A stretch of 64,000 nucleotides of DNA, taken from assembly GCA_002344125.1 (NCBI GenBank), contig DDTQ01000004.1, forward strand, positions 4,717-68,716, written 5' to 3'. Below the pieces are notes generated by a model, which saw nothing but the letters and a program-made list of their open reading frames with translations, was not told where the DNA came from and made no database searches. This document shows positions 46,414 through 50,603 of the stretch, piece by piece (within the stretch, counting starts at the first letter, position 1; each line of letters begins with the position of its first letter). The position numbers were made by a program, and so were the translations under genes. Origin of the DNA: Ignavibacteria bacterium UBA2360 (lineage in GTDB: Bacteria; Bacteroidota; Ignavibacteria; Tepidaquicellales; OLB5).

Positions 46414-46523
46414 TTTAACTGCCCGGATTGGTTATAAACTAATTGATAAGATCCAAAGATAGGGTGTACAAATCAGTTAAAAGAACTTCACACCTCAAAA
46501 CCTGTAGCATGTAACTTGTAACT

Positions 46524-46799
46524 CTACGGAGTATACTCTTTCAGCTTATCTTTAATAGCCGCTTTTTCAACTGTATTGCCTTCGTTGAGCTGTTTAACTA
46601 TATCATCAATAATCTGTTTGGCTTCTTCTTTTTTATAATCCTTAATAAAGCCATCGAAGTAGCTTTCGCCCGCTAGCGCGCGGTTAATTTCAACGTGCTT
46701 ATTGTGCTCGTTTAGTTCTGTATAATATACCACGTGGAATTTTTCATTATACTGCTTATCGCGGTAAATTTCGAACATTATTTTATCTGACTCGTACAT
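46524..46799 (-). CDS. hypothetical 91-aa protein
   Basis: An intact ORF in an accessory-looking region. No recognised motif. Confidence 0.5.
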   Translation of the reverse strand: MYESDKIMFEIYRDKQYNEKFHVVYYTELNEHNKHVEINRALAGESYFDGFIKDYKKEEAKQIIDDIVKQLNEGNTVEKAAIKDKLKEYTP

Positions 46800-46948
46800 T
46801 GGTATTGATGGATGAGAAAATTAGTGATTTTTAGCTGTTTTTTATGATTTAGCTACAAATTTAGCGTAAAGTATGGATTTAGACAAGGCATTTACTTTAG
46901 AGCGTTTGAATGCCGTTTTTTTATCAAAAGTAATATTTATATTAGTAC

Positions 46949-47134
46949 ATGGAAAGCACTAAACTAAAAGAATCACTTCTAAAGATCGCTGAAGGGGTTG
47001 AGCCTGAAACTACCCTTGAAGATATTTACAAACAGCTTGCATATCTTTCAGATATTGAAGAATCCGAAGAGCAGGAAGCCCGCGGTGAAGTAGTTACACA
47101 GGAAGAAGTTGAGAAGATGCTCAATAAATTCTAA
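46949..47134 (+). CDS. hypothetical 61-aa acidic protein
   Basis: ATG-initiated ORF. The C-terminal EARGEVVTQEEVEKML loosely recalls antitoxin-type tails, but there is no partner gene. Confidence 0.4.
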   Translation: MESTKLKESLLKIAEGVEPETTLEDIYKQLAYLSDIEESEEQEARGEVVTQEEVEKMLNKF

Positions 47135-47221
47135 GTACACATGATACCTTTACTTATTACTTGTTTTAATTTAAATTAATAATTATTGTTGCTTTACACG
47201 CAAGGGGGTTGACGAGACTAA

Positions 47222-49639
47222 ATGTCTTGTTGGCTTCCTATTTTTGTTAGTAAAGAAATTAATAAATTTATGGATAATGATTTCAATAAGATTAATTCTC
47301 TAATAGAAAAAGCAATTAATTTACAAAGTAGAGAACTTATTATAAGAGGATACAATTGTAAAAGACTACCGGAGAATATTGGTAATGCAGTACATTTAAG
47401 TGAATTATTTATTGAAGGAATCAATCTTGAAGAGTTGCCTGCTTCAATAGGGAACCTTCATAATTTAGATTCACTCTATTTAAGTGAAAATAAAATAAGA
47501 ATTTTACCTAATTCTATTGCAAAATTAAAGTCTATTAGGACATTAGGGCTAAGTAATAATAGGTTTAATAAAATACCACCACAAGTTTTTAAACTAAGAT
47601 ATTTGCATAATTTGTATTTGAACGGTAATGAAATTGCTGTTTTAGATCCCAAAATCAGTGAATTACATTATTTAGAATATTTGGATTTTAGTTTCAACAA
47701 AATCTCACAAATACCGGAAAATTTTTCGAAATTGAAAAATTTGAAATTTCTTGATTTGATGTATAATAAGATTAGGCAGTTTCCAAAAGAGTTAGTAAAT
47801 AACAGTAATTTAGTAGACTTGAATTTAGGTTCTAATTTGATCGATTCGATAGATCATTTGAGCAGTATGGAGTATTTGCAAAGCATAACGTTAGAGTCTA
47901 ATAGGATTTATTCTATACCGTTAGACATTTCGAAAATGCAAAATTTAAAAAGTTTGAATTTGAGTTACAATAATATTAGAGTCTTGCCACGAGAGTTATC
48001 CCAAATTGGGACATTGAAAGAACTAAATGTGGAAAACAATCCTCTTGTTGTACCCCCAATAGAGATCCTTTATGATGGTATTAAAGCAATCGAAAACTAC
48101 TATGATTCAATAGGGGAACAAGAAACATTTTACTTATATGAAGCGAAGTTACTGATTGTGGGCTCTGGCGGTGTGGGTAAAACTACTATCTTAAATTGTT
48201 TGGTTGATTCTGAAATTGGAGATTTAAAAAGTATCAAGACAACGGAAGGAATAAAAGTAGAAAATTGGTATTTAAAAACTGATAAAAACATCAATTTCCG
48301 TGTCAATATTTGGGATTTTGGCGGTCAGGAGATTTATCATGCAACTCATCAGTTTTTTCTTACCAAAAGATCATTGTATGTTTTTGTTTGGGATGCAAGA
48401 ACAGATGATAATCTATTAAGTTTTGATTATTGGCTAAACATAATTGATTTATTAAGTGATTCAAGTCCAGTTATTGTTATTATGAATAAGCTAGATGAAA
48501 GAAATAGAATGCTTGATGAAGAATCATTAAAAAGAAAATTCCCAAATATTAAATCATTTCATAAAGTGAGTGCTTTAAATGGTGTAGGTTTAGACTATCT
48601 AAAAACCTTAATTAGAGAACAGGTTGTAACATTACCGCATGTCGGTGATACACTTCCAATTGTGTGGAAGGAAATTCGTGAACATTTAGAGAAGTTGAAT
48701 GATAATTACATATCTTATAAAGAATATTTAAAATTATGTCATAAATTTAATCTATCAAAACCAAGGGCAGTTTATCTTAGCAGATATTTCCACATTTTAG
48801 GGGTTTTTTTACATTTTGAAGATAATCCATTGCTAAAGAATACTCTTATTCTAAAGCCAGAATGGGCCACACAAGCTGTTTATAAAATTGTTGATAATAT
48901 CGAAGTTCAAAAAAAATACGGTGTTTTGGAATATACTCAATTGTCTGAAATATGGGAGTTGTACCCACATGACAAATATGAGGTACTTATTGAATTAATG
49001 AAAAAATTTGAATTGTGTTTTGAGATTGCTAATAGTAAAGTCTATATAATTCCTGAACTCTTAAATCCTGTAAAGCCCAGTTTTGGTTGGGATGAAGATA
49101 ATAACTTGCGATTTGAATACAGCTATAAGTTTATGCCTGCAGGTTTAATAACGAGATTAATAGTAAGGATACATGATCTAATCAAAAATGATTTCTATTG
49201 GAAGAACGGATTTATTTTGACTTTTGAAAATACTGAAGCGTTAGTTATAGCGGAGGGTTTAGATAGGAAAATAAGAATATGGTTGAATGGTAGTAAAAAA
49301 AGGGAACTACTTGCTATAATAAGAAGAGAAATTTACGCAATACATAAATCATTAAATAATTTATTTGTTGAAGAAAGAATTCAATGTATTTGCTCTGAAT
49401 GTAAGAAATCATTTTCTCCATATTTCCATATTTTTGATGATTTATATATAGCTAGGCAAAAGAACAGAAAATCTACTGAATGTAAAAAGAGTTTTCAAAA
49501 CGTTAATATTGAAGAATTGTTAGGTTCAGCAATTGGCCCAAATTCAGAAGAGGGTATTAGTACTCCTACTAATCCAACTATTAATATCGATAACAGTCTT
49601 GTCAATTTTGCAGATTCTATAGGTGATATAATCAAGTAA
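47222..49639 (+). CDS. ROCO protein: leucine-rich repeats + Roc (Ras-of-complex) GTPase + COR domain
   Basis: About 11 LRRs (LxxLxLxxNxIxxIP, aa ~35-290). Roc motifs are G1 GSGGVGKT (48161-48184), G3 DFGGQ (48314-48328), G4 NKLD (48484-48495) and G5 SAL. A COR-like region follows (WKEIREHL...ILKPEWATQAVYKIV), then the tail CICSECKK...TECKKS. An alternative start is the ATG at 47270. Confidence 0.85.
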   Translation: MSCWLPIFVSKEINKFMDNDFNKINSLIEKAINLQSRELIIRGYNCKRLPENIGNAVHLSELFIEGINLEELPASIGNLHNLDSLYLSENKIRILPNSIAKLKSIRTLGLSNNRFNKIPPQVFKLRYLHNLYLNGNEIAVLDPKISELHYLEYLDFSFNKISQIPENFSKLKNLKFLDLMYNKIRQFPKELVNNSNLVDLNLGSNLIDSIDHLSSMEYLQSITLESNRIYSIPLDISKMQNLKSLNLSYNNIRVLPRELSQIGTLKELNVENNPLVVPPIEILYDGIKAIENYYDSIGEQETFYLYEAKLLIVGSGGVGKTTILNCLVDSEIGDLKSIKTTEGIKVENWYLKTDKNINFRVNIWDFGGQEIYHATHQFFLTKRSLYVFVWDARTDDNLLSFDYWLNIIDLLSDSSPVIVIMNKLDERNRMLDEESLKRKFPNIKSFHKVSALNGVGLDYLKTLIREQVVTLPHVGDTLPIVWKEIREHLEKLNDNYISYKEYLKLCHKFNLSKPRAVYLSRYFHILGVFLHFEDNPLLKNTLILKPEWATQAVYKIVDNIEVQKKYGVLEYTQLSEIWELYPHDKYEVLIELMKKFELCFEIANSKVYIIPELLNPVKPSFGWDEDNNLRFEYSYKFMPAGLITRLIVRIHDLIKNDFYWKNGFILTFENTEALVIAEGLDRKIRIWLNGSKKRELLAIIRREIYAIHKSLNNLFVEERIQCICSECKKSFSPYFHIFDDLYIARQKNRKSTECKKSFQNVNIEELLGSAIGPNSEEGISTPTNPTINIDNSLVNFADSIGDIIK

Positions 49640-49670
49640 TAATAAATTCTAAAAAATAAATAGTTAAATT

Positions 49671-49988
49671 ATGAAAATAAAGAATATTAATATTAAAGAT
49701 AGTCAAGTTAATTTTGCGGACAAAATTGATTCGATAAATTACAATCAGAATACTAGTGTTAATGAAAGTCAATTTGAAGATATTAAGAAAACAATTCTTA
49801 GTCTATCAAATGAAGAGAAAGCAGTTTTGTTGAGCCACCATAAAGAAATTGTAAATGATGCAAACATTGATTCTAAGATGTCTAAAATGGAAAGTGTAAA
49901 GGCTTTTTTGATTAGGAATGGTTCATCAATGATAACTTCTGTTTCTGCAAATGCAATTTATGAAGTTTTAAAAACGTTTTTAGTATAG
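49671..49988 (+). CDS. hypothetical 105-aa protein sharing an N-terminal motif with the ROCO C-terminus
   Basis: It starts 31 nt downstream of the ROCO gene, on the same strand and with the same low GC. The N-terminal INIKDSQVNFADKIDSI compares with the ROCO tail INIDNSLVNFADSIGDI. Confidence 0.6.
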   Translation: MKIKNINIKDSQVNFADKIDSINYNQNTSVNESQFEDIKKTILSLSNEEKAVLLSHHKEIVNDANIDSKMSKMESVKAFLIRNGSSMITSVSANAIYEVLKTFLV

Positions 49989-50603
49989 TCGTGTTCCCGC
50001 TATCGCCTCCACAATTGTCGTTCCTTTGACCCCCTCTTTGTCTCCCCCTGTTAGGGGGAGAGAATTGATAAACCCCTCCTTCAACTCATCCCACTTCATT
50101 CCTATTTCCGTCTGATTAGGTACAAGCAATTCATCCGTTATCTCATCGCCATCGGCAAAGTTCAGCTCGCAAGCGTGAACGTTTTGGGGATTCTTATAGT
50201 CATATATCGGCATACCGAACCTGCGGCAAATTACCGGGCGCGCTTCGTAGATGGTGCATTCGCCTTCGGTGCCAAGGGCGGGGCAGGGGACCTCCTCTGT
50301 TACAACACTGACCCCCTCTGCGAACATACCTGCGGTATGTTCTTTTTCTCCCCCTGTCAGGGGGAGATTCGTTAAATAATCCCTCGCCTTTTGCTGCAGC
50401 TCCTCACGCCGCTCCCGCGGCAATGCCCGGATATGATCCTGTATAATATACGCATCTATCAAAGTAATTTTAAATATCTGTGAGCAGCACTTACTGCAGC
50501 CCTTCCGGCACTGTATCTTATCGCCATATATCTCAAGGTTGCGGTCAAATTCCACCTGTATAAGCGAGGTAATATCGTAAAATTTTTGTTTGATTTCAGT
50601 CAT
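49980..50603 (-). CDS. YkgJ-family Cys-cluster (zinc/iron-chelating) protein carrying two in-frame palindromic-element insertions
   Basis: CRKGCSKCCSQ (CxxxCxxCC) near the N-terminus, with later Cys residues (CPALG..C..., CRRFG). Two LPLTGG(E/D)KE segments are encoded by 21-nt palindromes at 50041 and 50347. Confidence 0.65.
   Translation of the reverse strand: MTEIKQKFYDITSLIQVEFDRNLEIYGDKIQCRKGCSKCCSQIFKITLIDAYIIQDHIRALPRERREELQQKARDYLTNLPLTGGEKEHTAGMFAEGVSVVTEEVPCPALGTEGECTIYEARPVICRRFGMPIYDYKNPQNVHACELNFADGDEITDELLVPNQTEIGMKWDELKEGFINSLPLTGGDKEGVKGTTIVEAIAGTRLY
50041..50061. repeat. family-B palindrome tctccccct-gtt-agggggaga (inside CDS)
   Basis: Perfect 9-bp stem with a 3-nt loop. It encodes LPLTGGD on the minus strand. 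Confidence 0.8.
50347..50367. repeat. family-B palindrome tctccccct-gtc-agggggaga (inside CDS)
   Basis: Identical to the 50041 copy except for one loop base. It lies 306 nt (102 codons) away, so it is in the same frame, and encodes LPLTGGE. Confidence 0.8.

Follow-up and report, generated by a model that had tools for sequence, protein, structure and literature searches.

Short peptides shared by a large sensor and a small effector encoded beside it are best known from amyloid signaling. In the NLR/Bell pairs, the sensor and effector genes are adjacent and their products have a ~20–25-residue amyloid motif, BASS, in common (Dyrka et al. 2020, 10.1101/2020.01.06.895854). The Escherichia coli anti-phage system Bab/Agp is likewise an adjacent-gene pair with a common amyloid motif (Ibarlosa et al. 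2024, 10.1101/2024.11.07.622273). In these systems, the motif lies at the N-terminus of the sensor and serves as a template for its counterpart at the effector C-terminus (10.1101/2020.01.06.895854, 10.1101/2024.11.07.622273). Here, we discuss a locus of Ignavibacteria bacterium UBA2360 (GenBank assembly GCA_002344125.1, contig DDTQ01000004.1, positions 4,717 to 68,716 of the forward strand; this stretch of 64,000 nucleotides is referred to as the window), in which a ROCO GTPase gene (47222..49639, +) is followed by a gene for a 105-residue protein (49671..49988, +). The same 17-residue motif ends the ROCO protein and begins the small one. Sequence comparisons argue that the two genes probably constitute a sensor–effector module in which the short peptide would act as a homotypic adaptor. 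By analogy, its closest precedent would be the amyloid signaling of NLRs with Bell/HeLo-type effectors, together with E. coli Bab/Agp.

The locus resembles the BASS1-11 NLR/Bell systems, Bab/Agp, and fungal NWD2/HET-S in that a peptide is common to the terminus of a large sensor and to that of an adjacent, collinear small helical protein. As with BASS, there are several unrelated motif families, each matched inside its pair, and effector domains also occur directly fused to sensors. The effector is small (~105 residues here, 109 in Bab) and has a hydrophobic terminal helix opposite the motif, and the pairs lie in islands with defense-type neighbors. The polarity, however, is reversed in every locus examined, with the motif at the sensor C-terminus and the effector N-terminus here and the opposite in all published sets. 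Because the published motif searches were limited to NLR N-termini and effector C-termini, they could not have found a system of this polarity. Moreover, the sensors here are Roc-COR GTPases, a 226–248-residue protein, or pentapeptide-repeat proteins, not NACHT/NB-ARC STAND ATPases or TPR-PIN proteins. No relation of the helical domain to Bell/HeLo could be detected, and the hydrophobic helix of the domain is C-terminal rather than N-terminal. The motif also differs from BASS in being richer in charged residues (D/K/E) in its second half and in being retained in fused forms; its composition is I 18%, N 13%, K 12%, G 5%, and Q 4.5%.

Two other kinds of module invite comparison. Effector-associated domains (EADs) and Death-like adaptor domains (Kaur, Burroughs, Iyer, Aravind; PMC7159879, PMC8195603) are also homotypic modules found on an NTPase and on a separate effector. 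Neither the ROCO tail nor any of the 41 small-protein family members matches an EAD or other Pfam model. EADs are folded and much exceed a ~20-residue peptide in size, whereas the common element here is ~20 residues long and not confidently folded alone. Some homologs of the window ROCO carry precomputed matches to PF19955, PF19956, and PF19960, which are presumably EADs. The docking (COM) domains of nonribosomal peptide synthetases and polyketide synthases are alike in that short peptides at an upstream C-terminus and a downstream N-terminus set the pairing, and in that fused and split versions exist. The partners in such a docking pair are helical and complement each other without being alike in sequence, whereas the two peptides here are homologous to each other. 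Full-text literature searching, in a library that is incomplete and leaves novelty unproven, returned no account of a motif that ends a ROCO protein and recurs at the start of the next gene product.

A peptide repeated across a gene boundary

The ROCO protein ends in TNPTINIDNSLVNFADSIGDIIK. Its copy of the motif, INIDNSLVNFADSIGDI, covers residues 787–803 (49580..49630, +), two residues before the stop, and its counterpart in the small protein, which starts with MKIKNINIKDSQVNFADKIDSINY, is INIKDSQVNFADKIDSI at residues 6–22 (49686–49736). An earlier note on this DNA counted 12 of the 17 residues as identical; the corrected figure is 11 of 17. The note also held that the likeness is not a recent DNA duplication, and this view stands. 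DNA identity is 33/51, with agreement at 13/17, 13/17, and 7/17 of the first, second, and third codon positions, and a recent duplication is excluded because third positions are alike in only 7/17. In a direct-repeat search, the motif pair appears as a 36-nt direct repeat at 75%, which is no better than the chance-level repeats of this AT-rich stretch. At the protein level, comparison of the last 40 ROCO residues with the first 40 of the small protein gives a score of 49, reached by 0 of 5000 shuffles. The two whole proteins show no significant match (128 of 2000 shuffles reach 51), because a spurious LRR alignment scores 51. Against the motif profile, the sensor-side copy obtains 9.9 bits on the full protein and 16.4 bits on the 35-residue tail; the effector-side motif, MKIKNINIKDSQVNFADKIDSINYNQN (49671..49751, +; residues 1–27), obtains 48.8 bits. 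The observation in the window is suggestive, not compelling, and the case rests on the comparative evidence.

The two genes are separated by a triple stop, TAA TAA TAA, and a 31-nt AT-rich spacer (49637..49670, +), and the ATG of the small gene is the first codon past an in-frame stop. A scan of the spacer found no terminator-like hairpin, and the two genes are likely co-transcribed. In the window, the triple TAA, together with another in-frame stop within the spacer, rules out a fusion protein made by read-through or frameshifting.

With Roc followed directly by COR-A/COR-B, intact GTPase motifs (P-loop GSGGVGKT, DFGGQE, and NKLD, read in the translation), and an N-terminal LRR region, the 805-residue product of the upstream gene is a ROCO GTPase. 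Pfam matches place the LRR region at about residues 1–290 (LRR_8, 6.5e-30; LRR_14, 1.6e-27), the Roc GTPase domain at residues 309–425 (48146..48496, +; PF08477, 4.8e-25), and the COR-A and COR-B dimerization domains (48656..49522, +) at residues 479–614 (PF16095, 4e-39) and 627–767 (PF25497, 1.1e-37). The LRR-Roc-COR-A-COR-B core and the GTPase motifs are those of the Chlorobium tepidum Roco. A tail of 38 residues follows, consisting of a Ser/Pro/Gly/Thr-rich linker (residues 768–786; 49523..49579, +), which is the least conserved part in diverged orthologs, and the motif. A near-identical partial protein, HRI48240.1, belongs to the same 90% cluster and is annotated as from an Ignavibacteriaceae metagenome-assembled genome (MAG). 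A near-identical cluster member, P0162, is 789 residues long, 16 fewer than the window ROCO as called. Because of this protein, the true start may be Met17 (MDNDFNK..., ~47270). A terminator-like hairpin at 47203-47239 overlaps the annotated start.

The small protein and its family

With the small open reading frame (ORF) as query, a word-indexed search found no sequence but the query. Exhaustive HMMER searching of 1.84 billion representatives, however, returned 36 relatives at E < 1e-3, which cover nearly the whole query and are either free proteins of ~100–108 residues or the C-terminal ~105 residues of longer proteins. Its relatives show that the ORF is a true gene and that its product belongs to a protein family, and the possibility raised in the earlier note that it is noncoding falls away. 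The consensus of the family alignment (A1) is MKIxxIxIxGxQVNFADxIxKIxYN...KxFLxxNGIxIAQSLxASxIFExxK, and the N-terminal motif can be written MKIxNhNhxGGQVNFADKIDKIxYN. In an AlphaFold2 model built on the 41-sequence alignment, residues 32–104 (49764..49982, +) form a helical domain with helices at 32–44, 47–62, 66–83, 86–90, and 93–104 and a predicted local distance difference test score (pLDDT) of 76–91. The first 20 residues lie outside the folded domain, at pLDDT 41–62. A motif of low confidence next to a confident helical domain is what the model would be expected to give for a segment that folds on association. The most hydrophobic segment, GSSMITSVSANAIYEVLKTFLV (residues ~84–105), is the end of the domain, and the hydropathy maximum (19-residue stretch) falls within the C-terminal quarter in every family member printed.

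Split loci with the motif on both partners

Three ROCO homologs that end soon after a motif-like sequence (P0080, P0097, and P0057) are each followed by a family member of 104–105 residues. In locus L001 (Draconibacterium), the ROCO ends in IKNINIKDSNTNFSDNIKIENNYEN and the next gene begins with MKIDNLNIYGGNVNFAEKLKIVTY; the corresponding sequences are ISSISINGGQTIISDNIDNINYKR and MRINKIEISNSQVNYVEMVSKIEY in L002 (Bacteroidales) and IEIKEMHIRDSQVVFGDEIGKMETHKK and MKINKINIHGGNVNFADKIDKIIY in L004, and L009 and L132 are two more ROCO/COR pairs with the motif on both partners. Starting from free family members, three further loci were found in which an unrelated protein of 226–248 residues takes the place of the ROCO (L005:3316-4011, L007:3265-4011, and L010:2138-2818) and is followed by the small gene. 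Searches of Pfam, NCBIfam, PADLOC, and PHROGs gave no match for this protein family, whose tails read IENIHVSGGQANIAGEIKDIKYNKNEN, IEILNVNGGQVNIAGEIKEIKNNGNEN, or IGTLNVFGGQVNIGDVINEIKS (L005, L007, and L010). The motif is present on both partners in eight split loci besides the window, five after a ROCO/COR protein and three after the unrelated one. Hence, homologs do conserve the motif, a point on which the earlier note had made its reading depend. The profile search it had proposed gives a concordant result: against the C-terminal 35 residues of 2615 six-frame ORFs of ≥100 residues (ORFs bearing the pattern QVNFAD[KR]I, whose loci constitute a biased background, were left out, and the sensor tails are partly near-duplicates of each other), each of the nine sensor tails is among the 14 best.

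The tail is also constrained. Between the L004 and L132 ROCOs, identity is 28% over the aligned part of COR, 5/20 in the linker, and 13/25 in the tail, and the tail is therefore constrained at least as much as the domains. Among the 226–248-residue sensors, conservation is 36–68% in the tail, 60–80% in the body, and 30–55% in the linker.

The range of the motif was also sought in other ways. A metagenome scan gave just two additional loci, L131 and L132. On genome contigs, a search based on a 6-sequence alignment gave 108 pattern matches, 0 of them confirmed, and a DNA pattern for QVNFAD[KR]I gave 119 loci with 0 family members. Many of these pattern loci encode proteins of ~290 residues that carry DSQVNFADKIA ~9 residues from the C-terminus, which were rejected as a coincidental match to the core; they have a Rossmann-type N-terminal motif (VVLTGAAGY) and are, judged by eye, probably NAD-dependent epimerase/dehydratase-like. 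They occur in Rokubacteria, Methylomirabilota, and other groups (L012, L015, L026, L031, L035, L048, L063, L072, L080, and others) and caution against searching by pattern alone.

These data bear on the simplest alternative, a chance likeness between two low-complexity, Asn/Ile/Lys-rich termini in an AT-rich island. The comparison of the whole proteins, the abundance of DNA repeats of like quality in the stretch, and the coincidental QVNFADKI core near the C-terminus of the ~290-residue proteins would all agree with it. Chance would have to explain, however, a tail-versus-head score reached by none of the 5000 shuffles, an arrangement repeated in eight loci and four further motif classes (see below), and sensor tails that all rank within the top 14 of 2615. 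This explanation is hardly credible and is effectively refuted by the comparative data.

Other motif classes

Matching of a ROCO tail to the head of the next gene product generalizes to at least five motif classes, the NFAD class of the window and four others. In L135 (P0009), the ROCO ends in TIMINDAYFYPNSNPKFVDL (INDAYFYPNSNPKFVDL) and the next gene starts with MKIENANFFKESKPIFIDL, whose N-terminal peptide, IENANFFKESKPIFIDL, is unlike NFAD; past its head, this downstream protein belongs to the same helical family (profile positions 28–100, E 2.7e-18). In L133 (P0052; Pseudanabaena), the ROCO ends in NVIMNFNATTFGVAAHVQGDQDVNSH and the next gene starts with MASEPKVNINFNAPVYGAAGNVEGNQIVN. In L134 (P0012), ~50 residues are common to the ROCO tail and the head of the next gene product, comprising two HxGxGDNV repeats and an acidic spacer. 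The downstream gene continues into a transmembrane (TM) domain, and a fused version is found in the ROCO P0042 (E 9e-36). In L138 (P0023), the ROCO tail contains GDQINNYGQAGVLGKGGRAEGNAFER and the next gene starts with MGDKYVNQGQVGAMGDGAKAVGNTFKQ (score 68, 0/2000 shuffles); by eye, this type resembles the fused tails of P0070 and P0072. L133, L134, and L138 represent three motif classes, each with a different downstream domain.

In a matrix of tails against heads, the cognate combination exceeds the best noncognate one in L135 (42 versus ≤27), L133 (65 versus ≤36), and L134 (121 versus ≤34), and the cognate score is reached by 12/3000, 0/3000, and 0/3000 shuffles, respectively. Pairing specificity is, at the level of these alignments, visible between motif classes and not within one. 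A matched downstream partner is present for eight of the nine short-tail ROCOs examined. P0023 had not been inspected before its locus was fetched, and P0015, the exception discussed below, was chosen likewise; with 8/9, the rule that a tail matches the next gene is predictive.

Fused forms and the post-COR position

In 13 of the 120 closest ROCO homologs, the helical module forms the C-terminus, as the last ~80–105 residues. In five of these 13 (P0004, P0014, P0048, P0066, and P0079), the match to the profile begins at position 1 or 2 and includes the motif, and the hinge reads MKIKKIVNKEGSQANFADKIDKVVF in P0066 and MKIEHLEVKENAQVNIADKIDKIVY in P0079. In P0007, which is 52% identical to the window ROCO, and seven others, the helical part stands behind a different linker. 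A further fused ROCO, L131, comes from a metagenome. The module is also fused C-terminally to pentapeptide-repeat proteins of ~610–620 residues (P0129, P0153, and P0154), a third type of partner. Among its alternatives, the earlier note had listed a fusion or fission point and a repeat unit split by a stop codon, and both prove to capture part of the arrangement. The alignments confirm the window pair as a split version of the fused architecture, and the split form has one motif copy on each side of the stop. The single-ORF relatives P0133, P0140, and P0154 appear by eye to hold both copies in tandem, the upstream one being divergent.

The fused proteins have a further feature at the hinge. 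The residue aligned to the start codon of the free proteins is Met in ~20 of the 22 examples and Val in the remaining two (the proteins include P0122, P0127, P0129, P0132, P0133, P0135, P0138, P0140, P0141, P0144, P0146, P0153-P0155, P0004, P0066, P0079, and L131:3501; in L131, gagaaaggaagtgga precedes the internal Met). Sensor-side copies have F, L, or I at this position. Another class likewise has an internal Met, with SMGDTYINEGQ in P0070 and TMGDNYMISGQ in P0072 as against MGDKYVNQGQ in the free protein. The conserved internal Met may mean that translation can start a second time inside the fused gene, or that these genes often switch between the fused and the split state. The end of the sensor gene and the start of the small gene share 11 nt at L001:6222-6232, L005:4001-4011, and L007:4001-4011; the overlap, ATGAAAATTGA, is read as YEN or NEN before the stop in one frame and as MKI[DE] in the other. 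A single-nucleotide frame change at these overlaps would give a two-copy fused protein, such as P0133, P0140, and P0154 appear to be.

The fused relatives lend themselves to a second explanation, in which a short tandem duplication, or recombination at the hinge, broke up a fused gene and left a functionless remnant on the ROCO tail. Fused ancestors clearly exist, and the sensor-side copies are more degenerate than the effector-side ones. The ROCO tail of L001 is closer to the head of the window effector (13/18) than to that of its own partner (8/18), as if derived from an effector, and the ORFs of L001, L005, and L007 are one frame shift from fusion across their 11-nt overlap. A neutral remnant should decay or shorten, however, and in all split loci the tail is kept up to a point 1–7 residues before the stop. 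Its conservation also exceeds that of the linker and, in L004/L132, that of the ROCO body, and it is found again on an unrelated sensor and, as matched variants, in four other motif classes. Splitting of a fused gene accounts for the origin of the arrangement, not for its retention, constraint, recurrence, or class matching, and we consider a functionless remnant quite unlikely.

To our knowledge, no function has been described for the sequence beyond COR in bacterial Rocos. Compared with prokaryotic Rocos such as that of C. tepidum, the post-COR position here is a variable effector slot, which among the homologs of the window ROCO holds the helical module, TM helices, or a short adaptor peptide alone. 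Precomputed Pfam matches indicate what we take to be TIR and Mrr-type nuclease domains in the slot of some homologs. A C-terminal module with a single TM helix and tails ending in AGKWAFDFATSVGSSLVAEAIKK or LQPNFMGIGINLN occur among other ROCO homologs (P0011, P0016, P0024, P0027, P0040, P0090; P0020, P0043, P0063, P0094, P0121; P0031, P0046, P0059, P0106, P0117). This variety suggests that the slot holds a broad repertoire of small, possibly membrane-directed effectors.

Proposed mechanism

The earlier note had proposed a homotypic docking or adaptor peptide, and the eight further split loci, the unrelated sensor, and the other motif classes lend strong comparative support to that reading. 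In this model, the ROCO would comprise an LRR sensor and a Roc-COR GTPase switch and end in the peptide. Once activated and self-associated, ROCO molecules would gather their C-terminal peptides, and the clustered peptides would pair with, or template, the same peptide of the small protein by β-strand association, possibly in a cross-β/amyloid-like form. The pairing might then switch on or concentrate the helical domain of the small protein, which would probably act on membranes, and the cell could stop growing or die, as happens in abortive-infection immunity. In the fused relatives, where the coupling is covalent, the peptide would serve as the hinge that joins COR to the helical domain. Hence, an effector could either be attached covalently in the post-COR slot or be encoded apart and tethered via the peptide on both partners.

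Alternatively, the peptide might not link the two partners at all, and each protein would use it to reach some further component that both must meet, be it a ligand, a membrane, a chaperone, or a protease; or it might inhibit its own protein as a strand docked on COR/LRR. The fused forms have one copy and no separate effector to recruit, so that some role in cis is needed, and a hydrophobic residue or Met before the peptide, with a Gly-rich turn upstream, might mark a processing site. The AlphaFold models, which show no confident self-structure, would also suit this explanation. It would need five unlinked third parties, however, as there are at least five unrelated motifs, each matched only in adjacent genes, and no conserved third gene accompanies the pairs. 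We therefore regard a common handle as unlikely.

Several observations weigh against the adaptor model itself. Many of the split loci are near-duplicates, and the nine, including the window, represent only ~six independent lineages. The sensor-side copies are weaker matches to the profile than the effector-side ones (10–28 versus ~40–49 bits). Inside the NFAD class, the cognate head is the best in its row for the window and L005/L010, while a noncognate head outscores it in L001, L002, L004, and L132; the L002 pair taken alone is not significant (z 0.8), and the tail-versus-head comparison found no partner-specific covariation or matching in this class. P0015 (L137; Xenococcus MAG) has a cyanobacterial HSGSGDNVGGDKKMGDK tail and no matching neighbor, the downstream protein being an NNH3-NACHT-pentapeptide protein without the motif. 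In an AlphaFold2 monomer of a natural two-copy fused C-terminus, the motif has pLDDT <50 and forms short strands only. As to the effector, the best 19-residue Kyte-Doolittle segment averages 1.18 over the 41 members. This describes a moderately hydrophobic C-terminal helix and falls below the value usual for a TM helix. The small protein belongs to no family in Pfam (searched with all 41 members), NCBIfam, PADLOC, or PHROGs, and neither Foldseek (best E 0.24) nor sequence comparison finds a PDB counterpart for its helical domain. Because the domain lacks a Pfam, PADLOC, PHROGs, or PDB match, the effector role is drawn from its position alone.

Genomic context

The pair lies in a low-GC island (46500..50000; 27–34% GC versus 40–50% in the flanks) that holds the ROCO gene, the 105-residue gene, and, upstream of the ROCO gene, two small ORFs. 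One of these encodes 91 residues (46524-46799, −), with no Pfam match and only a weak PHROG match (phrog_17972, E 0.0036), and the other a very acidic protein of 61 residues (46949-47134, +), without a Pfam match. GC rises to 50% in the next 500 nt, beginning just beyond the stop of the 105-residue ORF, the end of which overlaps by 9 nt a convergent gene for a CxxCxxCC-domain protein (49980-50603, −). No direct repeats flanking the island were found. PADLOC models give noise-level matches only for the ROCO and the small ORF (E 0.001–0.009).

Neighbors at related loci include Mrr_cat, SIR2_2, NACHT, caspase-like Peptidase_C14, and Peptidase_U49 proteins and transposases; those of L005 include an RNase_T/DEDDh-BRCT protein (PADLOC PDC-S48) and a Peptidase_U49 protein. 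Across the neighborhoods examined, no conserved third gene was found beside the pairs. ROCO/COR GTPases are counted among the core NTPases of NTP-dependent conflict systems (PMC7159879). It is from the low-GC island, the defense-type neighbors, and this place of ROCOs in conflict systems that we infer a role in immunity, possibly by abortive infection.

Implications

A broader generalization is possible, which we consider doubtful: bacterial ROCOs, relatives of LRRK2, and at least two other sensor types would signal via prion-like cross-β motifs of reversed polarity, as a mirror-image and independently evolved counterpart of NLR/HET-s/BASS signaling, in which the motifs would fall into five or more classes and the ~105-residue helical proteins would be a new family of executioners. 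If the peptide couples sensor to effector, homotypic and possibly amyloid motifs would extend from STAND/NLR proteins to ROCO GTPases. The post-COR region of bacterial Rocos, to which no function is assigned at present, would then gain one. Moreover, motif coupling would be independent of polarity, and screens should therefore also compare sensor C-termini with downstream N-termini. The natural fused and split pairs, the new small effector family, and the at least five cognate classes would provide material for studying and engineering the wiring of sensors to effectors.

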